From Acidobacteriota bacterium (GTDB lineage Bacteria > Acidobacteriota > UBA6911 > RPQK01 > DATIPO01), in contig DATIPQ010000098.1 of assembly GCA_035471785.1 (NCBI GenBank), forward strand, positions 41,446 to 105,445: DNA of 64,000 nt. The letters run 5' to 3'. Below the pieces are notes generated by a model, which was not told where the DNA came from, did not search any database, and saw nothing but the letters and a program-made list of their open reading frames with translations. Shown here one piece after another: positions 4,406-49,568 of this stretch (position 1 is its first letter; every line of letters starts with the position of its first letter). The translations under genes and the position numbers were made by a program.

Positions 4406-5053
4406 TTAACACCCCAGGCGGTTCATTTCCCTCTGGTAGGTATCCATCCATTGCTGGTGCGAGTCCTGCTCGCGAAGGTAGAAAGGCGAACCGATTCTGA
4501 CCAGGGCTTTGGAGAAGGGTTTCGGGATGCGCATCCGGTCCCAGGAACCCAGTTGCCAGTAGCGCTGGGGCTGGATGTGGAAGCAGACGATGGGACAGCC
4601 GCTTTTCCGGCTCAGGAGCAGCGGGCCGGGTTTGACCTTGTGGCGCGGTCCCCTGGGTCCGTCGATTGTGAAGGCCACGTCGCGTCCCTCTCGCAACCGC
4701 CGCTTGAGCTGCAGCAGAGCCCGCACGCCGCCTCGGGTGCTCGATCCGCGCGAGGTCGCGTAGCCGAAACTTTCGATGATGCGGGCGATGTACTCCCCGT
4801 CGAAATGCTCGCTGGTCATGACCACGATGCCGCGATTCCTCCAGAAGTAGGTGGCGACCGGGATCTGATCATGCCAGAAGGAAAGAATGGCGGGCTGATT
4901 CGCTTGCCTCAGACTCTGGTAGTTGTCCCAGCCTTCGACCTGGAAGCGCAGGGTGCGTCCGATGGCGCCGATGAGCAGACGTCCCAGGCGATAAGCCAAC
5001 CAGATCTGGGCTCGTTGCTTGAAGGTAAACCGCGGTGGCGCGCCTTTTTTCAC
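4406..5053 (-). CDS. DUF374 / lysophospholipid acyltransferase-like protein
   Basis: GTG start. FWHDQIPVAT...TIDGPRGPRHKVKPG resembles the LPLAT-like DUF374 family. Confidence 0.7.
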   Translation of the reverse strand: MKKGAPPRFTFKQRAQIWLAYRLGRLLIGAIGRTLRFQVEGWDNYQSLRQANQPAILSFWHDQIPVATYFWRNRGIVVMTSEHFDGEYIARIIESFGYATSRGSSTRGGVRALLQLKRRLREGRDVAFTIDGPRGPRHKVKPGPLLLSRKSGCPIVCFHIQPQRYWQLGSWDRMRIPKPFSKALVRIGSPFYLREQDSHQQWMDTYQREMNRLGC

Positions 5054-8152: not shown

Positions 8153-8875
8153 TTAGGGCGTCAACTTGTAAGTCTTGCGGTCCGCCCCGAAATTGCCCAC
8201 CGAGGCTTGGGCGGCGGTAACCGTGATGGACAAAACCTCGTAGTCTTTCTCGACCTCAGGCACCTTGAAGCGCCCCTCGAATACGTTCTTGCGTCCGGCG
8301 TATGTCAACGGCATCTCCCGCACCAGCCGGTCTTGATGCTCGATGCGGGCGGCCACCTTGATCTTGTCGGCGTCCCAGAGCCCTCCGGGCTCGATGGGGC
8401 ACCCTCAAAGCAAGTGGACATGGGCTCTCAGGTCGACCTCGGCTTGGGGCTGATAGACGTCGGCCGGAGTCGGGGTCATGATGCCCACGATGAACCCGTA
8501 AAGCTGCAGGACCAGCCCGTCGCCCTCCATGTGGCGTCCGGGAATCAGCCAAGTGGTGGCCGAAGCCCTCTGCATGGAGGCCGGGAAAGCCAGGGGCCCT
8601 TCGGCCGCGACTTCCACCAGGGTCGGGCGGTCGATCCGCAACTCCACGCAAAAAGAGGCCGTCCCCGGGGTATCGAAGCGCGCCCTGCCGCGTTGGGGCG
8701 GCTGCTTCATGATCGACTCGGTGTCGCCCGAGCCGCCCTCATGAATCCCGCGGGCCAAGACATCGCCGGTTTGGCAGTCGCGCACCGTTATCCGGCATCC
8801 GCCCACCAAGGAGCCGATGATCTTGGCGTCGCAGGAGACGACGTGCACTACCAAGCGGGTTCCTTGCGTCTTCAC
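8153..8875 (-). CDS. Uncharacterised protein with an in-frame TGA (candidate selenoprotein, about 240 aa; Sec at codon 157)
   Basis: Track ORFs 8405..8875 and 8153..8356 are in the same frame, separated only by a TGA at 8405..8407. GC3 bias is continuous across the TGA. Translation reads ...RAHVHLL-U-GCPIEPGGLWDADKIKVAARIEHQ.... A SECIS-like hairpin lies just downstream. tRNA-Sec and selD are in the window. The gene is translationally coupled to the symporter. Confidence 0.5.
8374..8398 (-). other. bSECIS-like hairpin downstream of UGA 8405..8407
   Basis: CCCA-UC-GAGCCC-GGA-GGGCUC-UGGG. It begins 7 nt after the UGA. The apical GGA loop is 18 nt from the UGA. It shares the CCGGAGG apical motif with the selD SECIS. 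Confidence 0.4.
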
Positions 8876-21559: not shown

Positions 21560-21590
21560 GTCCCGGCCCCGTGAGGCGGTGCTATAATTC
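21560..21590 (+). promoter_or_regulatory. Candidate sigma70-type promoter (-10 TATAAT at 21583..21588) for selC
   Basis: A perfect TATAAT sits 13 nt upstream of the tRNA-Sec 5' end. The -35 is weak. Confidence 0.25.
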
Positions 21591-21601
21591 CCAGCGTTTC
21601 A

Positions 21602-21700
21602 GGAGGTACGTCTCGTCTGGTGACGGGCCTGGTCTTCAAAACCAGTCGAGCCGCGTCGAGAGGCGTGGCTGGTGGGTTCGATTCCCATGTACCTCCGCCA
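21602..21700 (+). tRNA. selC: tRNA-Sec (selenocysteine tRNA, anticodon UCA)
   Basis: 8-bp acceptor stem GGAGGUAC/GUACCUCC with G discriminator and CCA. Anticodon stem CUGGU/ACCAG with loop CUUCAAA (UCA). Long variable arm. 5-bp T stem (8/5 architecture). 99 nt. Confidence 0.85.
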
Positions 21701-26940: not shown

Positions 26941-28317
26941 GTGTCGGCTGATCTCAACGACACGATCATCGCTCTAGCCACGGTTCCCGGCCGCAGCGCT
27001 CTGGCGCTATTGCGCATCAGCGGCCCACAGTCCCTCGAGTTTCTGACCCGCCTCTGTGAGGCCCGGCAGTGGAGAGAACGTCCCCGCCAGGCACGGTTGA
27101 CGCGCCTCAACGATCTGCAAGGCGGCGAAATTGACCGCGGCCTGGTCACCTTCTTTTCCGCTCCGCATTCCTACACGGGACAGGACGTGGTCGAGATCTC
27201 CCTGCACGGGAGTTCCTGGGTTTGCCGCAAGGTCCTGGAGTGCGCACTGCAGTCGGGACTCCGTTTGGCGGGTCCGGGCGAGTTCACTCAACGCGCCTTC
27301 TTGCTGGGGAAGATGGATCTGATCCAGGCCGAGGCGGTGCGCGATCTGATCGAGAGCGAAACGGCCTTCCAAGCCAGGGTCGCGCGCAGCCAGATGGAGG
27401 GCGCTCTGAGCAGGCGCCTGCAACCTCTCAAGGATGAACTGGTCAAAGTCATATCCCACATGGAGACGGCCCTGGAGTTCGTAGAGGACCAGGTCGAACC
27501 CGAAGGCCGGGAAGCCCTGACGCAGCGTCTGCTGGAAGCGGCCGATTTTCTGGCTGAGCTGGAGGAGAGTTTCCAGGTGGGACGGCTCTTGCACGAGGGA
27601 ATTACGATAGCTCTCGTAGGTCGTCCGAACGTGGGCAAGTCGAGTCTCTTCAATGCTCTCATGAGCGATGAGCGCGCCATCGTCACCGAGATTCCGGGCA
27701 CCACGCGCGACGCTTTGAGGGAGAGGGTCGATCTGCACGGAATCCCCGCCCAGATCGTGGATACGGCCGGCATCCGGGAAACCCGGGAGGAGGTTGAAAA
27801 GCTGGGCGTGGAACGCACTTTGCAGATGGTGGCCGAGGCCGACGTGAGCGTCTTCGTGGTGGATGGGGCGGAGCCTTTCTCCGACGAGGATAGTAGATCA
27901 TGGCAGGCGGTGGAGGGACGGCGCCCGCTGCTGGTGGTCAACAAGCGCGACAAAGGGGTGTCGATCGAGCTTCCTGAGCGGGTCGAGCAAGGCTGCATCG
28001 GCCGTCTGGAAGTGTCGGCGGCGAGCGGGGAAGGGGTGGACCGGCTGCGGCAGGAATTGTGGCGCTTGGCCGGGGGAGAGGAAGTGGCGGCGGGCGGGGA
28101 GGCGGCGTTGCTGACCAATGTGCGCCAGCAAGGCTGCGTGCGCGAGTGCCGGGAGGCCCTCTTGGAGGGCTTGCAGGGATATCGTTCAGGCTTGAGCGAG
28201 GAATTTGCCCTCTATGACCTGCGCCGGGCCTTGGAGGCCCTGGGCAGGCTGACGGGCGAGGTGACGGTGGAGGAGATCCTGGGCGAGATCTTTTCCACGT
28301 TCTGCATCGGCAAGTAG
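26941..28317 (+). CDS. mnmE: tRNA modification GTPase MnmE
   Basis: GRPNVGKSSLFNAL, DTAGIRET, and a C-terminal CIGK. Confidence 0.9.
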   Translation: MSADLNDTIIALATVPGRSALALLRISGPQSLEFLTRLCEARQWRERPRQARLTRLNDLQGGEIDRGLVTFFSAPHSYTGQDVVEISLHGSSWVCRKVLECALQSGLRLAGPGEFTQRAFLLGKMDLIQAEAVRDLIESETAFQARVARSQMEGALSRRLQPLKDELVKVISHMETALEFVEDQVEPEGREALTQRLLEAADFLAELEESFQVGRLLHEGITIALVGRPNVGKSSLFNALMSDERAIVTEIPGTTRDALRERVDLHGIPAQIVDTAGIRETREEVEKLGVERTLQMVAEADVSVFVVDGAEPFSDEDSRSWQAVEGRRPLLVVNKRDKGVSIELPERVEQGCIGRLEVSAASGEGVDRLRQELWRLAGGEEVAAGGEAALLTNVRQQGCVRECREALLEGLQGYRSGLSEEFALYDLRRALEALGRLTGEVTVEEILGEIFSTFCIGK

Positions 28318-30097: not shown

Positions 30098-30703
30098 CTA
30101 GGGGAAGAAAATCAGCCTGGAGATCATGCGCCGATGGGAGCCGGGAACCGCCAGCCGAGTCTCGGCGCGCCACTTCACGGCGCCGCTCACCGGGACGTCC
30201 TGCCCGTGGAAAGCCAGCAGGGGAATCTTCCCCCCGCCCAGCGCCGCCTCCACGCGGGCGGAGGTCTTGAGGGCCCTTGCCGTTGCCGCGTCGACGTTCG
30301 TCCAGACGAAGTCCTCGGCCGGCAGGTGATGCACTTCGCCCCCCAACCCCAGACGCCGCACGGCTTCCTTCAGGAACACGGCTTTGCGATGGTGCCGCTC
30401 CAGCAAGCTGACCTCGAGGGCAGGATCGAGAACCTGCAGGCCCAGGCCCGGGAAGCCGGCTCCGCTTCCGATGTCGGCGAGCTTTCTCTCGCCCTCCTTG
30501 AGCAGCCGCAGACCCAGGAAGGACTCGAAGAAATGAAACTCCATCAGCTCGCCGAAGGAAGCCACCGTGGTCAGAGAGATCCTCCGGCTCCATTTCTGCA
30601 ACAAGGCCCAGTAGGTCTCCATCTGCTCGATCTGTAGAGGAGTCAAGGACAGGCCGAAGCGTTCTTCAAGCCCTTTCAGCCGAGCCTTCTCCTCCCCGGT
30701 CAA
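30098..30703 (-). CDS. rsmG: 16S rRNA (guanine527-N7)-methyltransferase
   Basis: GidB-like sequence. [14 protein letters not shown] motif. Confidence 0.85.
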
Positions 30704-32571
30704 ACCCGGCTCCGCTCGCTCAGGGTGAGGTGGATGTTGAGGATGGAAACCGCCGCCGGGGTAACGCCCGGGATCCGCGCGGCCTGGCCCAGGCTCTCGG
30801 GACGCACCCGTCCAAAGCGCTCCTTCATCTCGCTTGAAAGGCCCTCCACGCCGCCATAGTCGAAATCGCCCGGAATGCGCCGCGTTTCCATCTTGCGGAC
30901 TCTCTGCACATCCCTTTCCTGCCGGCGGATGTAGCCCTCGTACTTGACCTCGGTTTCAACCACGTTGGCCTCGTCTCCCCTCAATTCTATGCCGCCCAGG
31001 TCGAGCAAGGGCCGCAGGTCCTCCAGGCGGCACTGCGGGCGGCGCAAAAGCTGGGCCAGATTCAATCCGGCCTCCGCCTGCAGCCTGCCGCGCAAGTCCT
31101 CGAATCCGGGACAATCCCGCTGCAAGCCGGCGGAGTCAAGAAAGTCTACGGCCCTGTCGATCCTTTTCAGCTTCTGATGGACCGCCTCCAATTCACGGGA
31201 GGAGAGCAATCCGGCGCGATGGCCGTGCTCAGCCAGACGCCTGTCGGCGTTGTCGATGCGCAGCAGCAGGCGGTACTCGGCACGCGAGGTGAACATGCGA
31301 TAAGGCTCGTCCACTCCCCGCGTCACCAAATCGTCGATGAGGATGCCGATGTAGCTCTCCTGGCGGCCCAGCACCAGCGGTTCGCGGTCCTGCACGGCCA
31401 AGGAGGCGTTGAGACCGGCCATCAGTCCTTGGGCGGCGGCCTCTTCGTATCCCGTGGTGCCGTTGATCTGGCCGGCCAGGTAAAGGCCCTCCACCTGACG
31501 CGTTTCCAAAGTGCTCTTCAATTGACGGGGCTGCACAAAGTCGTACTCCACCGCGTAGCCCGGACGCACCACGACGGCCTCTTCCAATCCCTTGATGGCG
31601 GCTACCATGCGCTTCTGCACGTCGACCGGCATGCTGGTGGAAAAGCCGTTGATATAGATCAATGGAGAATCGAGGCCTTCCGGCTCCAGGAAAAGCTGAT
31701 GCCGAGAACGGTCGGAAAAACGGCGGATCTTGTCCTCGATGGAAGGACAGTAGCGGGGCCCGGTGGCCGTCAGAGTCCCCCCCAAGAGAGGACTGCGCCG
31801 GCTGTTCTCGCTAATCAGATCATGCACCTGCGGATTGGTGTAGGCGATCCAGCAATCGACCTGAGGAAGGGCCGGCCCGGTGGTGCGAAAGGAAAAAAAA
31901 GTCGGGTCCTCGTCTCCGGGCTGCGCCTCGAAGCGGCTGAAGTCGATGCTGGAACGCTGAAGACGCGGGGGAGTGCCCGTCTTGAGACGCCCCATTTCGA
32001 AGCCGATCCCGCTGACCGAGTCGGCCAACTTGACCGCCGCCCGTTCGCCGGAGCGCCCGGCCCGAAAACGCTCGCCGCCCACGTGGCAGACTCCGTTGAG
32101 GAAGGTGCCGGTGGTCAGAATCGCCGTCCGGCAGGAGATCTCTTCTCCGCCCGCCATCTCGATGCCGGCCACACGCCCTCCCCGGCGCACAATGGCGGTC
32201 ACTTCACCCCCCAGCAGGTCCAAGCCGGGCATGGTGGAGAGCAGTTCCTGCATGCGCAGGCGGTAGCGTTCCTTGTCGCTCTGGCAGCGAGGGGCTTGAA
32301 CGGCAGGCCCGCGGCTGCGGTTGAGGAGGCGGAACTGAATGGCGGTCAGATCGGCCTGGCGACCCATGATGCCGCCCAAGGCATCGATTTCGCGCACCAG
32401 GTGACCCTTGGCAATGCCCCCGATTGCGGGATTGCAAGACATTTGACCGATCATGTCCAGGTTGATGGTCACCAGCGCCGTGGAGGCCCCGACCGCCGCG
32501 GCCGCCGCGGCCGCTTCGCAGCCCGCATGGCCGCCGCCGATCACTACCACGTCATAATGCCGTCTGCTCAT
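30700..32571 (-). CDS. mnmG: tRNA uridine 5-carboxymethylaminomethyl modification enzyme MnmG (GidA)
   Basis: [20 protein letters not shown] motif. ATG 32571 is used; ATG 32583 is the alternative. The 96-aa track extension is spurious. Confidence 0.9.
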
Positions 32572-32650
32572 GAGAAAGGCCATTATAACGCGAGAGGCTA
32601 TCTCTCCCTTCAACCACGCCGCTTCCGGCCTCTCGTCTATAATGCCCAGC

Positions 32651-33697
32651 ATGACCGATAAGCGGAAGAGACTGACTGAACTGGTGTCCTGCGCCGGTTG
32701 AGCGTCTAAGCTGGCACCGGAGGTGCTGAAGACAGTCCTGAGCAATCTGCAGGGATGGAATGACCCGGCCGTCCTCGTCGGGTACCAGACTGCGGATGAC
32801 GGGGGAGTGTATCGTCTGTCCGACGAACTGGCACTGGTGCAAACCGTGGACTTCTTCACCCCGGTGGTCGACGACCCCTTTCAATATGGTCAGATCGCCG
32901 CCGCCAACGCTCTCAGCGACGTCTACGCCATGGGCGGAGAGCCGCGCTTCGCCCTTTCCGTCGTGGGCTTTCCCAAGTCGGGGCTGGACACCGGCATCCT
33001 AGGGGAGATAATGGCGGGAGGCAGCGCCAAGCTGGCCGAGGCCCGCGTTCCCGTCATAGGGGGCCATTCCGTCCAGGACCCTGAGATCAAGTTCGGCTAC
33101 TGCGTGACCGGCGTGGTCTCTCCCCACGCCTGCTGGACCAACGCGGCGGCCCAGGCCGGGGACGCGCTGGTGCTGACCAAACCGCTGGGCACCGGCATCA
33201 TCACGACCGGGGTGAAGTTCGAGAAGACGCCTCCACCCGTGCTGGAAGCCGCTCTGGAGGTGATGCTCAGGCTCAATGATGTCGCTGCCCGGGCCGCGGC
33301 CTCCTATTCCGTTCATTCCGCCACCGATATTACCGGCTTTGGACTCCTCGGCCACGCCCTAGAAATGGCCCAGGCCTCCGGCGCCCGATTGCGCCTGCGG
33401 GCCTCTCAGGTTCCCCTCATTGCAGGCACGCGGGATCTAGCCCAAACGGGCATGTTGCCGGGAGGAATCGAGTCCAACAGGGCTTATCTGGGGGATCGAG
33501 TCGAGTGGCATTCCACAACCCTCATTGTGCAACAGATCCTTCTCGATCCGCAGACCTCGGGGGGACTCCTTTTCAGCCTGCCGCCGGCTGACGCGGAGAA
33601 ACTCGTCGCCGACCTCGCCGGGCAGAACCAAGAGGCCGCCATAGTGGGCGAAGTCGTGGAGAAGCGCGACGAGATCCTGATTGAAGTCGTACCGTAG
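32651..33697 (+). CDS. selD: Selenide, water dikinase (selenophosphate synthetase), Sec-containing form with in-frame UGA at 32699..32701
   Basis: ATG 32651 gives [30 protein letters not shown]..., which aligns with E. coli SelD [23 protein letters not shown] with Sec in place of Cys17. The track ORF begins at GTG 32723, downstream of the UGA. SelD core motifs are present throughout. Confidence 0.8.
32714..32726 (+). other. bSECIS-like hairpin of selD (GCACC-GGA-GGUGC)
   Basis: 5-bp stem, 7 bp with G-U extensions. Apical GGA loop 17 nt after the UGA. It shares the CCGGAGG motif with the 8374..8398 hairpin. Confidence 0.45.
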
Positions 33698-41062: not shown

Positions 41063-41533
41063 ATGAGTTCGTTCAGCCACATCGATGAGGAAGGCCGGGC
41101 CCGCATGGTCGACATCAGCCGCAAGCCACGCATGGCTCGGACGGCGGTAGCCGAGGGGTTCCTGCATATCCAGCCGGAAACCGCAGAGCAGATTCGTAGC
41201 CGCCGGCTGCCCAAGGGCGATCCCTTCGAAGTGGCCCGCATCGCCGGCATCCAGGCCGCCAAGAGGACCAGCAGCCTGATACCGCTCTGCCATGACCTCC
41301 ATCTCGATTTTGCCGACGTCGAGATCGAGTTGCTGGAACGGTCCTGGAAGATCCGCTCCACCGTTTCCTGCCGACGTGGGACTGGCGTGGAAATGGAGGC
41401 CTTGACCGCCGTGACCGTGGCAGCGCTGACCCTCTACGACATGTGCAAAGCCGTGGACAAGGATATGCGCATCGGGGAGATACGCCTCATCGAGAAGCGG
41501 AAGGAACCGTTGAAGGACGAGGCCGGCTCTTGA
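41063..41533 (+). CDS. moaC: Cyclic pyranopterin monophosphate synthase
   Basis: SHIDEEGRARMVDIS...LIPLCH matches MoaC. Confidence 0.9.
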   Translation: MSSFSHIDEEGRARMVDISRKPRMARTAVAEGFLHIQPETAEQIRSRRLPKGDPFEVARIAGIQAAKRTSSLIPLCHDLHLDFADVEIELLERSWKIRSTVSCRRGTGVEMEALTAVTVAALTLYDMCKAVDKDMRIGEIRLIEKRKEPLKDEAGS

Positions 41534-42887
41534 CCCACTTCCACAGATCAAAAACCAGCAACGTGTAAAAGGGGAAGTACTCCAGCCACAGAACCCAAGC
41601 CCGCTCTTCCACCTGAGGATAGGCAAACCAGTATCCGCTGTAGCTCAAGAAGGACGCCGCCCCGAGCCACAGCCCAGCCCAGTAGCGCAGACCGATCAGC
41701 GGATAAAGCGCGATGGCCCAGGTGGTATACCAGGGGTGAACGGTGTAGGAGCAGGCGTAGAAGAACATGAGCAGGAAGTAGAGGGCGGAAGCCGTTTGCA
41801 CTGTTCCGGCTCGGCTGCCGTCCCCTCGCCTGGCAAGGAAGAAGGCATAGGCCAGCAGGACCGCCCAGGCGAGAGCGAAGATCCTCCCGGCCATAGCCAG
41901 GACCTCCGGCCGGCGCGCTTCGTAAATCAAGAAGAAGGGGGAGTTGAAGCGCCACTTCTGGTGATAGGTGCGGGACACTTCCAGAAAAGCGCCCCACGAC
42001 TCGGCCAGATCTCCCTGCCAGGCGAAGTAGAGACCCGCCGGAAGCGCGAAACCGCCGGCCAGCCAAAGCAAAGAACGGATGGAGGCTCTCCAGCCCTTCA
42101 TTCTCAGCCAGAAGAAGGGCGCCGTCATCAGCGGCATCAGCTTGGTCAGCGAAGCCATCCCCAAGAGCAAGGGGGAAAGGGCGGCCCGCCATCCCCCTCG
42201 GTCGGGGGCCGCAGCCGGCAGCCACAGGATTGCGCCTACCCACATCGCGGCCGTCACCAGATCGAGGTGGCCCGAGGAATAGAATTCCAGCAGCACCAGC
42301 GGATTGAGCAGCCAAAGCGCCCAGTCCTGGGCCCGCCTGAAACCGGCTTTCCACCACAGTGCCGCCATCATTGCCTCGAAGAGCAAGAGGAGACACTTCC
42401 ATCCGATCACAGAGGGTCCCCACAAGAGGTGGTTGAGGAGAAAGAGGAACTGGGCCACCGGGGGGTAGATGGAGGTGCGGTCGGTATGGGCCATGCGCTG
42501 GTAGAGATCGGGATAGCGGGATTGGAAATCGAGGCGCTCTTGAGGCGCCCGCAGATAGGGATTCTCGCCGTGAGCGGTCAAGGCTCCGTCCCACAGGTAG
42601 CGGTAGACGTCCTCTGAGAGGCCGGGAGAGGCGGGGATCCAGAGCGCGCGCAGCAGCAGCGCCGTGACCAGCAGCCAAGGCAGAGTCAGCCGTCCGCGGC
42701 GCAACAGCAGCCAGGCTGCCGCGGCCAGCAGGTAAAAGACTGCCAGGCCGCCCAGGAACCAGGGAAGCTGCGGCCGGAAGGGCCACAGCGTCATCAGTCC
42801 CGCCTGCAGCGCCATCAGCGCCAGCGTCAACACCACCCCAAGCATCGCCTTGATTGTAAGCCACCCGCCATTTGCCGTCTGGACCAT
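41487..42887 (-). CDS. GT87/DUF2029-family membrane glycosyltransferase (PimE-like)
   Basis: Polytopic membrane protein with DVYRYLWDG...GENPY loop motif. Internal ATG 42887 is used. Confidence 0.6.
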   Translation of the reverse strand: MVQTANGGWLTIKAMLGVVLTLALMALQAGLMTLWPFRPQLPWFLGGLAVFYLLAAAAWLLLRRGRLTLPWLLVTALLLRALWIPASPGLSEDVYRYLWDGALTAHGENPYLRAPQERLDFQSRYPDLYQRMAHTDRTSIYPPVAQFLFLLNHLLWGPSVIGWKCLLLLFEAMMAALWWKAGFRRAQDWALWLLNPLVLLEFYSSGHLDLVTAAMWVGAILWLPAAAPDRGGWRAALSPLLLGMASLTKLMPLMTAPFFWLRMKGWRASIRSLLWLAGGFALPAGLYFAWQGDLAESWGAFLEVSRTYHQKWRFNSPFFLIYEARRPEVLAMAGRIFALAWAVLLAYAFFLARRGDGSRAGTVQTASALYFLLMFFYACSYTVHPWYTTWAIALYPLIGLRYWAGLWLGAASFLSYSGYWFAYPQVEERAWVLWLEYFPFYTLLVFDLWKWVKSRPRPSTVPSASR

Positions 42888-42945
42888 GGCGGGCACACCC
42901 TCCGCTTCTCCCCGATGAGGGCGGGCCCTTGCTATACTGGAAAGC

Positions 42946-43965
42946 GTGAAACGCCTACATTTCTTTTTGGCCGCGGTCCTCTGGATGGGTTCTTTTCCGC
43001 TGGCCCAGGATGAACCCGAGCAGCAGACCCAGGAGCCGATTCCCGCGGACCAGGGATTCCGCATCGACGTACGGGTGGACCAAGTCTTTCTGGCCGTCAG
43101 CGCCCGTGCCCACGGAGGAGGCTTCGTCGACGACCTGACGGCTGAGGATGTGAGGATTTACGAAGACGGGGTCGAGCAGGAGATCCGCAACTTCGCCCAA
43201 GAACTCGCGCCGGCCCACGTGGCGTTGCTGATCGATGCCAGCGGCTCAACCCGCTTCAGCCAGAGTTCCATCCAGCGCGCGGCCTACAATTTCGCTTCCA
43301 AGCTGGGCGAAGAGGACCGTGTGGCGATCATCACTTTCAGCTCTCAGGTCAAGCTGATCCAAAACTGGACGAATGATCTCGAGGAGTTGGACTATAGCCT
43401 GAAATCGATTTGGCCCAAAGGGCTGACCTTGCTTCACGACGCCATCTATCTGACTTTCGATGACCTCTTTAAAGACGTGGAGGGCAAGAAGGCCATCATC
43501 CTCCTGACCGATGGAGTCGACAGCAACAGCTACTACCGTCAGGAAGAGGTGCTGCGACTGGCCCAGTCTTCGGAGGCCTCTGTTTACGTCGTTTCGCTCC
43601 TGGATGAATACCGGCAACAGGCCATCGGGGCCCGGGCGCAGGCGCTGGCCCAGCATCGCACGGTGCCGCTCGAATTTACCGATGCCTACATCCGAAAGTC
43701 AGAAGCCTTCCTGCGCAAGCTGGCCCATGACACCGGCGCCCGCATGTTCAGCGCGGCCGCCGCCACCTACCTGAGCGAAATCTACGAAGAGGTGGCGGAG
43801 GAGATCAAGAACCTCTACTTCATTTCCTACATCCCCAGCAACAGCGCCAAAGACGGGACCTGGCGGCGCATTGAAATCGAGTCTCCGACCAAACCTGGAG
43901 TGACTCTGCGCACCCGCCCGGGGTATTATGCGGATCCGCCGGAAGTAACCACCGGGAGCCGCTGA
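42946..43965 (+). CDS. Secreted VWA domain-containing protein (Acidobacteria-type VWFA family)
   Basis: GTG start. Signal peptide and ALLIDASGS MIDAS motif. Confidence 0.75.
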   Translation: MKRLHFFLAAVLWMGSFPLAQDEPEQQTQEPIPADQGFRIDVRVDQVFLAVSARAHGGGFVDDLTAEDVRIYEDGVEQEIRNFAQELAPAHVALLIDASGSTRFSQSSIQRAAYNFASKLGEEDRVAIITFSSQVKLIQNWTNDLEELDYSLKSIWPKGLTLLHDAIYLTFDDLFKDVEGKKAIILLTDGVDSNSYYRQEEVLRLAQSSEASVYVVSLLDEYRQQAIGARAQALAQHRTVPLEFTDAYIRKSEAFLRKLAHDTGARMFSAAAATYLSEIYEEVAEEIKNLYFISYIPSNSAKDGTWRRIEIESPTKPGVTLRTRPGYYADPPEVTTGSR

Positions 43966-44642: not shown

Positions 44643-46097
<1,455 letters not shown>

Positions 46098-46161
46098 GGC
46101 CTCCCTTCGAATTGACAATGCATCGATGTCCATAGATCAGGAATCTGGAGAAATAGAGAAA

Positions 46162-46923
46162 ATGCTGGAAATCAAGAACTTGAGAGTGTCGGTCGAGGGC
46201 AAAGAGATCCTCAAAGGCGTCAACCTGAAGATGAATGAGGGCGAGATCCACTCCATCATGGGTCCCAACGGCTCGGGCAAAAGCACCCTGGCCAACGTCC
46301 TGGCCGGCCGCGAAGAGTACGAGGTCACCGATGGGCAGGTCTTTTACTTCGGTCAGGACCTGTTGGAGATGGACCCTGAGGAACGGGCTTGCGAAGGCAT
46401 CTTTCTGGCCTTCCAGTACCCCGTCGCCCTGCCCGGCATCAGCAATACCTATTTTTTGCGCGCCGCCCTCAACGCCAAGCTGAAGTACCACGGCCAAGAT
46501 GAAATCGACGCCATGGAGTTCCTCAAACTGGTGCGCAGCAAGATGAAGCTGCTCAAGATGGACGACACTCTTATGAACCGTCCTGTCAACGACGGTTTCT
46601 CGGGAGGCGAAAAGAAGCGCAACGAGATCTTTCAGATGTCGGTCCTGGAACCCAAGCTGGCCATTCTCGACGAAACCGACTCGGGCCTTGATATCGACGC
46701 CCTCAAGGTGGTGGCCGAAGGAGTCAATTCGTTGCGCGATCCCAAGCGGTCTTTTCTGGTGGTGACCCACTACCAGCGACTGCTCAACTACATCGTCCCC
46801 GACTACGTGCACGTCCTCGTGGACGGCCGCATCGCCAAGTCCGGAGACAAGCAACTGGCCATCGAGCTGGAGGAGAAGGGTTACTCCTGGCTGGAAGAGA
46901 AAACCGCAGCGGTTTCGGCCTGA
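46162..46923 (+). CDS. sufC: Fe-S cluster assembly ATPase SufC
   Basis: MLEIKNLRVSVEGKEILKG...GPNGSGKST. Confidence 0.9.
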   Translation: MLEIKNLRVSVEGKEILKGVNLKMNEGEIHSIMGPNGSGKSTLANVLAGREEYEVTDGQVFYFGQDLLEMDPEERACEGIFLAFQYPVALPGISNTYFLRAALNAKLKYHGQDEIDAMEFLKLVRSKMKLLKMDDTLMNRPVNDGFSGGEKKRNEIFQMSVLEPKLAILDETDSGLDIDALKVVAEGVNSLRDPKRSFLVVTHYQRLLNYIVPDYVHVLVDGRIAKSGDKQLAIELEEKGYSWLEEKTAAVSA

Positions 46924-46960
46924 AGGGACTAACCGGACACTTCACGAGAGAGGACTGACG

Positions 46961-48301
46961 ATGTTGGAAGCAGTAAAAAGAGAGATCGACAGTTACCGCG
47001 AGCAGTTCGCGGCCTTAGAGAGGGAGTCGGGCGATGCCGGCCCCATCCAGTTGCGCTCGTTGCGCAAAGAAGCCTTCAATTACTTTTGCGACAAAGGTTT
47101 CCCGACCACGCGCGACGAGGACTGGAAGTACACCAACCTGAATCCGCTCACCCGGACGGAATTCGGCCTCCAGCAGGCCGATCCGCTGCAGGCCTCGGAG
47201 CTCAGCCGCATCCCCTTTGGAGACCTGCAATGCCCCCGGCTGACCTTTGTCAACGGGCATTTCAGCCAGGACTTGTCGACCCTGGATCAAATGCCCCAGG
47301 GCGTGACCGTCAAGACGCTGTCGCGGGCCCTTGAAGAGGACGCCGACTGGCTGGAAGAGCACCTTGGGCGTCACGCCCAATACCAGGACAAGCCGTTTAC
47401 GGCACTCAACCTGGCTTTCTTGCGCCAGGGCGCCTTCATCAAAGTAGCGCCCAACACGGTGGTGGAAAAGCCGGTGCAGGTGCTATACGTCACCACCGGG
47501 AAGGCCCAGGACGGCGCCTGCCATCCCCATAACCTGGTCCTGGTGGGCGAGAACAGTCAGTTCAAGCTGGTGGAGAACTACAGCGCCCTGGGCCAGGTCC
47601 GCTATTTCAACAACGTGGTCAGCGAAGTGGTGGTGGGCGACAATTCGGTAGTCGACCATTTCAAGATCGATCTTGAGAGCCTGCAGGCCTTTCACGTCAA
47701 CCGCACCGCGGTCTACCAGGGACGCAGCAGCAACTACCGCAACTTTTTCGTGGCCTTCGGCGGGGCCATCGTCCGCAACGACATCAACACCGTGCTCGAC
47801 GGAGAAGGTTCGCATTGCGGCTTGGACGGGCTTTTCGTGACTCGCGAGAGGCAATTGGTGGACAGTTTCACGGTGATGGAGCATGCTCAGCCCAATTGCG
47901 ACAGCCGCGAGGTTTACAAAGGCATTCTTGACGACAGTTCGCGAGGGGTCTTTCACGGACGCATCATCGTTCGTCAGAAAGCGCAGAAAACCGACTCCAA
48001 ACAGAGCAGCGACAATCTGCTCATCTCCGACAACGCCTTGGTCAACACCAAGCCGCAGTTGGAGATTTACGCCGACGACGTGAAGTGCACCCATGGGGCC
48101 ACCATCGGGCAATTGGACGACGAGGGGCTCTTCTACCTGCGTTCCCGCGGGATTCCCGAAGAAGCGGCCCGCGGTTTGATGATCTACGCCTTTGCCAGCG
48201 AGGTGATCAGCCGCGTCACCTACAAGCCCTTGCGTGAGCGTCTGCATGATTACATGGCCGACTGGCTGCCCAACGGCGATCTGGTGAGGGAGGCCGAGTA
48301 A
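46961..48301 (+). CDS. sufD: Fe-S cluster assembly protein SufD
   Basis: SufBD-family C-terminal beta-helix motifs. Confidence 0.85.
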   Translation: MLEAVKREIDSYREQFAALERESGDAGPIQLRSLRKEAFNYFCDKGFPTTRDEDWKYTNLNPLTRTEFGLQQADPLQASELSRIPFGDLQCPRLTFVNGHFSQDLSTLDQMPQGVTVKTLSRALEEDADWLEEHLGRHAQYQDKPFTALNLAFLRQGAFIKVAPNTVVEKPVQVLYVTTGKAQDGACHPHNLVLVGENSQFKLVENYSALGQVRYFNNVVSEVVVGDNSVVDHFKIDLESLQAFHVNRTAVYQGRSSNYRNFFVAFGGAIVRNDINTVLDGEGSHCGLDGLFVTRERQLVDSFTVMEHAQPNCDSREVYKGILDDSSRGVFHGRIIVRQKAQKTDSKQSSDNLLISDNALVNTKPQLEIYADDVKCTHGATIGQLDDEGLFYLRSRGIPEEAARGLMIYAFASEVISRVTYKPLRERLHDYMADWLPNGDLVREAE

Positions 48302-48305
48302 GACA

Positions 48306-49568
48306 ATGAGCGCCATCGGTACTTCCGCTGCCCAGCCCCAATCATTTCCTCAGGCCTACGATGTCGAGAACATCCGGCGCGACTTCCCCATCCTTCATCA
48401 GGAGGTGAACGGCCATCCCTTGGTCTATCTCGACAACGCAGCCTCGACACAAAAGCCGCGGGCCGTCATCGAGGCGGTGGAGGAATACTATCGGCGCGAT
48501 AACGCCAATATTCACCGAGGGGTGCATGAGCTGAGCCAGCGCGCCACCGATGCTTACGAAAAAGCGCGGAGCACGGTCCAACGATATCTGAATGCGGCCG
48601 AAAGCCGCGAGATCATTTTCGTGAGGGGTGCGACCGAGGGCATCAACCTGGTGGCGCATTGCTTGGGCCGCTCTCTGGGCGAGGGCGACGAGATCATCAT
48701 CTCGCACCTGGAACACCATTCCAACATCGTGCCCTGGCAGATGCTGGCCCAGCGCAGCGGAGCCAGCCTGCGGGTGATACCCATCAACGACGCCGGGGAG
48801 GTCGAGGTCGAGGCCTATGCCGAGTTGCTCAACGAGCGGACGCGCCTGGTGGCGCTTTCCCACGTCTCCAACGCGCTGGGGACCATTTCGCCGGTCAAGC
48901 AGATGATCCGCATGGCTCACGAGCAGGGTGCCCTGGCGCTGATCGACGGCGCTCAGGCCGTCCAGCACCTGGAAGTCGACGTGGGCGATCTGGACGCCGA
49001 CTTCTACGTCTTTTCAGGGCACAAGATCTATGCGCCCACCGGTATCGGCGCTCTCTACGGCAAGGCCGAACTGCTGGAAGACCTGCCGCCTTACCAGGGC
49101 GGCGGCGACATGATTCTCTCGGTCAGTTTCGAGGGCACCACCTACAACGAGATTCCTCACAAGTTCGAAGCCGGCACGCCCAACATCGCCGGGGCCATCG
49201 GGCTGGGCGCGGCTCTGCGCTATCTGAACGAGGCGGGTGTCGGACGCATCGCCGCCTATGAGGCCGAACTGCTCGCTTACACCACCCGGCAGGCCCGGCA
49301 GATTCCGGGCTTGAAGGCGGTCGGCACGGCCTCCAGCAAGTCGAGCGTGTTCTCATTCCTGCTCGATAACGCCCACCCCCACGACATCGGCACGATTCTC
49401 GACCAGAACGGGATCGCCATCCGCACCGGACATCATTGCGCCCAGCCTGTCATGGAGCGTTTCGGCATCCCCGCCACCGCCCGTATCTCGCTGGGGATGT
49501 ACAATACCCGCGAAGAGATCGACAAAGCCTTGCAGGCGGTGAGAAGAGTGCAGGAGATTTTCAATTGA
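48306..49568 (+). CDS. sufS: Cysteine desulfurase SufS
   Basis: FSGHKIYAPTGIGALYG PLP-lysine region. RTGHHCAQP active-site Cys loop. Confidence 0.9.
   Translation: MSAIGTSAAQPQSFPQAYDVENIRRDFPILHQEVNGHPLVYLDNAASTQKPRAVIEAVEEYYRRDNANIHRGVHELSQRATDAYEKARSTVQRYLNAAESREIIFVRGATEGINLVAHCLGRSLGEGDEIIISHLEHHSNIVPWQMLAQRSGASLRVIPINDAGEVEVEAYAELLNERTRLVALSHVSNALGTISPVKQMIRMAHEQGALALIDGAQAVQHLEVDVGDLDADFYVFSGHKIYAPTGIGALYGKAELLEDLPPYQGGGDMILSVSFEGTTYNEIPHKFEAGTPNIAGAIGLGAALRYLNEAGVGRIAAYEAELLAYTTRQARQIPGLKAVGTASSKSSVFSFLLDNAHPHDIGTILDQNGIAIRTGHHCAQPVMERFGIPATARISLGMYNTREEIDKALQAVRRVQEIFN

Follow-up and report, generated by a model that had tools for sequence, protein, structure and literature searches.

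A selD gene of an Acidobacteriota bacterium very probably encodes a selenoprotein with selenocysteine at UGA codon 17

The stretch of DNA considered here (64,000 nucleotides of contig DATIPQ010000098.1 from an Acidobacteriota bacterium; hereafter the window) carries a selD gene whose reading frame contains an in-frame UGA codon close to its 5′ end. The analysis indicates, with a probability of about 0.95, that the gene at 32651-33697 is selD and that its product is itself a selenoprotein, with selenocysteine (Sec) at UGA codon 17. Gene callers and the public annotation shorten selD because the UGA is taken as a stop. Thus, the open reading frame (ORF) returned by mechanical callers begins at a GTG downstream of the UGA and is identical to a database protein of 324 amino acids (P0001), and the NCBI protein HSR69085.1, of 328 amino acids, begins with ‘MAPEVLK’ at a non-ATG start (32711), also downstream of the UGA.

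The full frame opens at ATG 32651-32653 and closes with a TAG terminator at 33695-33697. An earlier note on this DNA had extended the called ORF upstream from GTG 32723, through an in-frame TGA at 32699-32701, to ATG 32651, and each of these coordinates was found to be correct. A further in-frame ATG at 32642 is merely part of a TATAAT hexamer followed by G and is not kept in relatives; therefore, ATG 32651 was taken as the conserved start. Protein searches were run with Cys in place of Sec at the UGA codon. The extended product matched TIGR00476, the SelD equivalog model, with a score of 374.4 bits (cutoff 125), residues 7-314 being aligned to positions 1-310 of the 311-position profile. Given that this match runs from the first profile position, the upstream extension does restore the SelD N terminus, as had been proposed. 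The product also matched NF002098 at 342.1 bits (cutoff 299; profile positions 2-345 of 347), and the Pfam domains AIRS (PF00586) and AIRS_C (PF02769) were recognized at 92.5 and 80.0 bits, respectively.

The best match to a solved structure was Escherichia coli SelD (PDB 3U0O), with an E-value of 7e-75 over residues 2-340. The E. coli N terminus quoted in the earlier note agrees with this entry, and the UGA codon falls, as stated there, at the position of Cys17. Residue 17 aligns with Cys17 and Lys20 aligns with Lys20, the local sequences being CAG-U-ASK in the window and GAG-C-GCK in E. coli (U denotes Sec). In the same alignment, residues D50, D67, N86, D90 and D226 are identical to D51, D68, N87, D91 and D227 of the E. 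coli protein, which, following established structural work, we take to be ATP- and metal-binding residues. SelD of Aquifex aeolicus (2YYE/2ZOD) aligns likewise at the column occupied by Sec or Cys. Because residues 17 and 20 align with the loop of 3U0O, the catalytic loop, with Sec/Cys17 and Lys20, is present in the product only if translation proceeds through the UGA. In the clade of the window, a Cys lies three residues ahead of the Sec position (S-C-A-G-U, 32690-32701), giving a CxxU arrangement. This Cys is common in many relatives, and S, A or G is found at the position in others.

Conservation of the UGA was assessed in relatives obtained by scanning one genome per species. This yielded 80 loci encoding proteins with 46-71% identity to SelD, mostly from Acidobacteriota metagenome-assembled genomes (MAGs), with others that included KSB1, Desulfobacterota-like and Clostridia genomes. 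Each locus was anchored by tblastn on the part of the protein downstream of the UGA and then read upstream in frame. Of the 80 loci, 62 had TGA in the Sec/Cys column and the rest had a Cys codon (16 TGC, 2 TGT); no further codon occurred. Alternation of UGA with Cys codons only is the signature of Sec. The column so defined, comprising 62 TGA and 18 TGY codons, corresponds to E. coli Cys17 and to the Sec site of A. aeolicus SelD, in agreement with the assignment made in the earlier note. The peptide ahead of the column (K-R-L-T-E-x-V-x-C-A-G) and the ASKLAP sequence after it are both conserved in relatives. In the eight closest loci, the codons upstream of the column vary chiefly at third positions (ACT/ACG/ACC, GAA/GAG, GCC/GCG/GCT and GGT/GGC/GGG), and because the variation is mostly of this kind, the region upstream of the UGA is judged to be translated. 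The glycine-rich loop is therefore aligned, and the frame leading into it conserved, in the region where the earlier note had looked for either to fail.

A hairpin lies just 3′ of the UGA and has the properties of a bacterial Sec insertion sequence (SECIS) element. As the earlier note had it, the core, GCACC-GGA-GGTGC (32714-32726), has its first base at the 13th nt after the UGA, and the 7-bp form, made up of five Watson-Crick and two G-U pairs, starts at the 11th. The consensus used by bSECISearch specifies an apical loop of 3-9 nt on an upper stem of 4-16 bp, a G at loop position 1 or 2 (mostly with G or U after it), a spacer of 16-37 nt from the UGA to the apical loop, and a minimum free energy (MFE) of -7.5 kcal/mol or lower (PMC13188914). 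The selD hairpin, with a 3-nt loop on a 7-bp stem, lies within the loop and stem limits, and its loop sequence, G-G-A, satisfies the loop-G rule. The distance from the UGA to the loop is 17 nt, the loop beginning at the 18th nt, and is inside the range. The energy of -8.0 kcal/mol, obtained for a 6-bp hairpin, passes the threshold marginally. The SECIS search called for in the earlier note thus returned a hairpin that agrees with the published bacterial model and, as described below, covaries.

Given that folding energy alone was uninformative, synonymous recoding and covariation were used to assess the hairpin across the relatives. In each of the 62 Sec-type genes, the native codons gave a better fold than synonymous recodings did; the mean z-score was -1.58 for these genes compared with -0.59 for the Cys-type genes (Mann-Whitney p = 1.6e-4). 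For selD of the window, z was -2.04, and only 3% of recodings folded equally well. Covariation was counted only in the 14 Sec-type sequences that share the hairpin register of the window. In this set, 94.9% of cells were paired, compared with 35-60% when the partners were slid, and compensatory changes were present at two stem positions (CG/GC and AU/GC/UA); none of 500 shuffles reached the observed score. The hairpin loop is 3 nt long in 49 of the 62 Sec-type relatives, in which it begins 16-22 nt after the UGA, and a hand count found G in the first two loop positions of 54/62 Sec-type but 10/18 Cys-type genes.

The codon register of the hairpin differs between SelD clades, with the loop at +16, +17, +18 or +21 after the UGA. 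Within the first 45 nt after the Sec codon of the related loci, the stems are unrelated in sequence from clade to clade (GCACC, GGUCC, CUCGCC and GCCAAC). The occupation of different codon registers among clades suggests that structure rather than sequence is maintained. In a Vicinamibacterales-like clade, a further strong hairpin (CGCUCAGGUGCUGAGCG) is found immediately downstream of the SECIS hairpin.

A gene for tRNA-Sec with a UCA anticodon, selC, is present in the window 11 kb upstream of selD, between cofE and deoC. It was identified by ARAGORN and by Rfam (Table 1), and a scan of the window at Rfam gathering thresholds returned two tRNAs and nothing else. The conclusion of the earlier note that the organism runs a Sec-dependent pathway is thus backed by a tRNA-Sec gene and by a probable second selenoprotein gene, described below, both in the window, in which neither selA nor selB was found among 45 ORFs scanned.

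Table 1. Coordinates of selD, its recoding elements and other features of the window
Feature	Position	Strand	Basis or remark
selD, full coding sequence	32651..33697	+	348 codons plus stop; Sec = codon 17 (very probable); translation and profile matches
Sec17 codon, in-frame UGA (TGA)	32699..32701	+	aligned with E. coli Cys17 and with the TGA/TGY column in relatives
Bacterial SECIS hairpin (predicted)	32712..32728	+	5′ arm 32712-32718 UGGCACC; loop 32719-32721 GGA; 3′ arm 32722-32728 GGUGCUG
Truncated ORF of mechanical callers	32723..33697	+	GTG start, 324 amino acids; artefact of UGA taken as stop
selC, tRNA-Sec, anticodon UCA	21602..21700	+	ARAGORN; Rfam RF01852 at 75.1 bits (gathering score 47)
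Perfect -10 box TATAAT, putative promoter	32638..32643	+	7 nt upstream of the selD ATG
TATAAT-preceded start, mnmG	32587-32569	-	
TATAAT-preceded start, 215-amino acid ORF (4406-5053)	5067-5051	-	
TATAAT-preceded start, selC	21583-21602	+	
Candidate selenoprotein gene	8153..8875	-	240 codons; in-frame UGA 8407..8405 = codon 157
SECIS-like hairpin GAGCCC-GGA-GGGCUC	8378..8392	-	-10.5 kcal/mol; loop from the 19th nt after the UGA

Were the UGA a true stop, whether from a nonsense mutation, from decay into a pseudogene or from faulty assembly, the product would start downstream, at GTG 32723 or CTG 32711. The mechanical ORF calls and the public annotation, with products of 324-328 amino acids, are in line with such a reading, and UGA is a regular terminator elsewhere in the window. 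The presence of the same TGA in 62 of the 80 relatives, across several phyla, is difficult to reconcile with it, as is the conservation at the protein level, with synonymous variation, of the 16 codons upstream. The loop that carries Sec/Cys17 and Lys20 and aligns with the E. coli catalytic loop would be missing from the shortened product, and both a SECIS-like hairpin and a tRNA-Sec gene were found. A true stop is therefore regarded as highly improbable. A further possibility is that the UGA specifies one of the standard amino acids (Trp, Gly or Cys), through reassignment of the code or near-cognate suppression. UGA is reassigned in some bacterial lineages, namely those using genetic codes 4 and 25. 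Here, however, TGA is the terminator of 12 of the 31 confidently identified genes in the window whose family matches reach the ORF end, and because these genes end where their family profiles end, UGA has not been reassigned genome-wide. Given also that the column alternates with Cys codons only and that a tRNA-Sec with a UCA anticodon is encoded 11 kb away, decoding by a standard amino acid is scarcely credible.

The role of the hairpin is less straightforward. Sec might be inserted at codon 17 while the hairpin at 32712-32728 is a by-product of GC-rich coding for L-A-P-E-V-L, with another or larger fold serving as the determinant for SelB. The MFE fold of 32690-32760 uses pairings other than those of the proposed hairpin, and its stability does not exceed that of dinucleotide shuffles (z = 0.17). 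Best-hairpin energy fails to separate Sec-type from Cys-type genes, the latter forming hairpins of like energy (p = 0.078), and some bacterial SECIS elements described in the literature depart from the consensus model. However, the advantage of native codons over synonymous recodings in all 62 Sec-type genes, significantly greater than in Cys-type genes, would not be expected of a by-product, nor would the compensatory CG/GC and AU/GC/UA changes in the stem. Moreover, G-first loops of 3 nt recur within a narrow range of distances from the UGA, 16-21 nt, despite differing stems and registers, and the second candidate selenoprotein gene has a GGA loop only 1 nt farther from its UGA. A by-product hairpin is therefore considered unlikely. 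Together with the fold and energy comparisons just given, several further points weigh against the assignment of selD as a Sec-decoded gene with a SECIS at this site. In thermodynamic terms the hairpin is borderline, its -8.0 kcal/mol only just passing the -7.5 kcal/mol that the model sets as its threshold. No SECIS or otherwise relevant Rfam family matched 32640-32800 at E ≤ 10, the only hits being two chance matches to small nucleolar RNAs. The covariation set was picked by hairpin register, and its sequences are phylogenetically related rather than independent. The 45 ORFs across the 64-kb window that were scanned with NCBIfam or Pfam models yielded neither selA nor selB. Finally, selenium incorporation is here a prediction from sequence.

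On the preferred reading, that of a Sec-containing SelD, expression of selD can be described by the following scheme, the later steps of which draw on established knowledge of the bacterial Sec system. Translation would begin at AUG 32651, and the ribosome would reach the UGA at codon 17. The hairpin, 10 nt past the UGA, would act as a SECIS element and recruit SelB carrying Sec-tRNA-Sec, the tRNA being the predicted product of selC, such that Sec is inserted in place of termination. Sec17 and Lys20 would then act in the glycine-rich N-terminal loop (S-C-A-G-U-A-S-K). In E. coli SelD, the loop containing Cys17 and Lys20 handles selenide and the transfer of a phosphoryl group from ATP. The window protein would, by the same token, make selenophosphate, which SelA requires for synthesis of Sec-tRNA-Sec. 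Because selenophosphate feeds Sec-tRNA-Sec synthesis, selD would depend on its own product. Binding of SelB, insertion of selenium, catalysis and this feedback loop are each predicted by analogy.

The SelD of the window is an additional, mis-annotated case of the long-established Sec-containing form of the enzyme. SelD belongs to the most broadly distributed selenoproteins of bacteria (PMC1794560, PMC5029168, PMC13188914) and ranks second among their families, ∼19% of SelD genes in one reference set encode Sec (PMC4561486), and Acidobacteria were listed with selenoproteins already in 2006. With E. coli SelD (3U0O), the window protein has in common the family, the architecture, the glycine-rich loop with Lys20 and the aligned Asp and Asn residues. 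By contrast, the E. coli gene specifies Cys17 by UGC and needs no SECIS, whereas selD of the window would specify Sec17 by UGA together with a hairpin. The proteins of A. aeolicus (2ZOD/2YYE, crystallized as a Sec-to-Cys variant) and of Haemophilus and other Pasteurellales are Sec-type counterparts; in these, a UGA likewise occupies the position of the catalytic-loop Cys and is accompanied by a SECIS within the coding region. The motif of A. aeolicus is SSG-C(U)-AAKV, compared with CAG-U-ASKL in the window. The window gene differs from the known Sec-type selD genes in that it comes from another phylum, its closest relatives being Acidobacteriota MAGs, in the Cys of C-A-G-U and, probably, in a clade-specific leaderless promoter arrangement. 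When set against the bacterial SECIS consensus, for which the prototype is E. coli fdhF, the window hairpin is likewise a stem-loop that lies inside the coding region, directly 3′ of the UGA, with values within the published ranges. The fdhF element, of ∼40 nt, is far larger than the window hairpin, which does not need a bulged U.

A second gene with an in-frame UGA was flagged by a scan of the window for in-frame TGA codons, filtered on the GC content of third codon positions (GC3); the same scan passed over selD. This gene, on the minus strand at 8875-8153, is called as an ORF that ends at TGA 8407-8405 after 156 codons, beyond which 83 further in-frame codons with coding-like GC3 lead to a TAA at 8155-8153. 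The corresponding public protein, HSR69062.1, is cut at the UGA. The read-through protein of 240 amino acids has 426 homologs, mostly of 250-290 amino acids, that span the position of the TGA, and none of them has a Pfam domain; nor does the family match an NCBIfam model. In the alignment, the TGA falls on the leading Cys of the motif C-G-C-P-x-E-P-G-G-L-W-D, and 72 homologs show no variation in C-G-C. The TGA, the frame beyond it and a GAGCCC-GG(A/C)-GGGCUC hairpin are all retained in relatives with 75 and 55% identity, whereas a relative at 43% identity has TGC and no hairpin. The GGA loop and its spacing from the UGA are almost the same in the second gene (19th nt) as in selD. These sequence features suggest that the gene is probably a second selenoprotein gene, and it is treated here as a candidate. 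A further gene with a Sec/Cys pair, followed by a GGA-loop hairpin nearly identical to that of selD, speaks for active decoding of Sec by the organism.

A structure model of a Cys-containing homolog, with a predicted local distance difference test score (pLDDT) of 92.6, is a two-domain β-sandwich whose structural neighbors are only generic ones of the immunoglobulin (Ig)-like or fibronectin type III (FN3)-like kind. The DUF1573 domain is Ig-like and carries a CGC motif. It is catalogued in a review table (as PF07610) as a ‘UGC’ selenoprotein family, and the second gene resembles it in having U-G-C in place of C-G-C and in its predicted Ig-like β-sandwich fold. Membership of DUF1573 was nevertheless not detectable, given that PF07610 matched none of 72 family members at E ≤ 10 and the window protein was also without a match. 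Another in-frame TGA, at 42916 before the plus-strand ORF 42919-43962, was discarded as a recoding site; no hairpin accompanies it, and the ORF is an ordinary VWA-domain gene with an internal start, the VWA domain beginning ∼100 codons into the ORF. The call for this ORF overlaps that of a minus-strand gene for a GT87-like membrane protein (41490-43064), which is an ORF-boundary effect.

The region immediately upstream of selD contains a perfect -10 box, TATAAT (Table 1). The hexamer stands 6-7 nt from the selD ATG in all eight loci of the window clade and in none of the 73 other loci, and among the eight closest loci it is invariant within upstream DNA that is otherwise unalignable. Six TATAAT hexamers occur in the window where 2.1 are expected, and four of the six lie 7-13 nt before a gene start; the others of these four precede mnmG, a 215-amino acid ORF and selC, in the last case by 13 nt. 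The pattern seen at selD is found once in the window, compared with an expectation of 0.07. A Shine-Dalgarno sequence was not seen upstream of the selD ATG. The spacing of the TATAAT box in the clade and the lack of a Shine-Dalgarno sequence suggest that the selD mRNA may be leaderless. If so, no more than 48 nt would separate the 5′ end of the transcript from the site of recoding by SelB and the SECIS, and the ribosome involved would have initiated without a Shine-Dalgarno sequence.

The genes around selD form an origin-type cluster of rnpA, yidC, jag, mnmE, parA, rsmG and mnmG, with selD divergent from mnmG (30703-32571, minus strand) and mnmE nearby at 26941-28314. MnmE and MnmG build the (c)mnm5U34 modification of tRNA that is later selenated by selenouridine synthase, and the adjacency of selD and mnmG is retained in the two nearest relatives. 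No gene for this synthase (selU/ybbB) is present in the window, and the proximity of selD, mnmG and mnmE probably just reflects origin-region gene order. Farther downstream lies a sufB-sufC-sufD-sufS operon (44643-49565). Its cysteine desulfurase, of the SufS type (48306-49565), also matches the selenocysteine lyase SclA, though below threshold; a proposed role of enzymes of this class is to donate selenium to SelD (PMC13188914).

Given that Sec-containing SelD has been known for decades, the biological novelty of this gene is small, and its chief value is the correction of an annotation. The nearest database homologs are nearly all of 303-336 amino acids (most of the closest being of ∼322) and cover ∼90% of the query; truncation of Sec-type SelD at the N terminus thus looks systematic in protein catalogues derived from metagenomes. 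Because the closest public SelD proteins are cut at the UGA, Sec use in Acidobacteriota would be under-reported by such catalogues. A correct call of selD marks the organism as Sec-decoding and led here to a second, unannotated selenoprotein candidate, which is a more interesting lead than selD itself. It is conceivable, at somewhat less than even odds, that the window holds both an Ig-like U-G-C selenoprotein family absent from current catalogues, represented by the gene at 8875-8153, and a leaderless selD mRNA.

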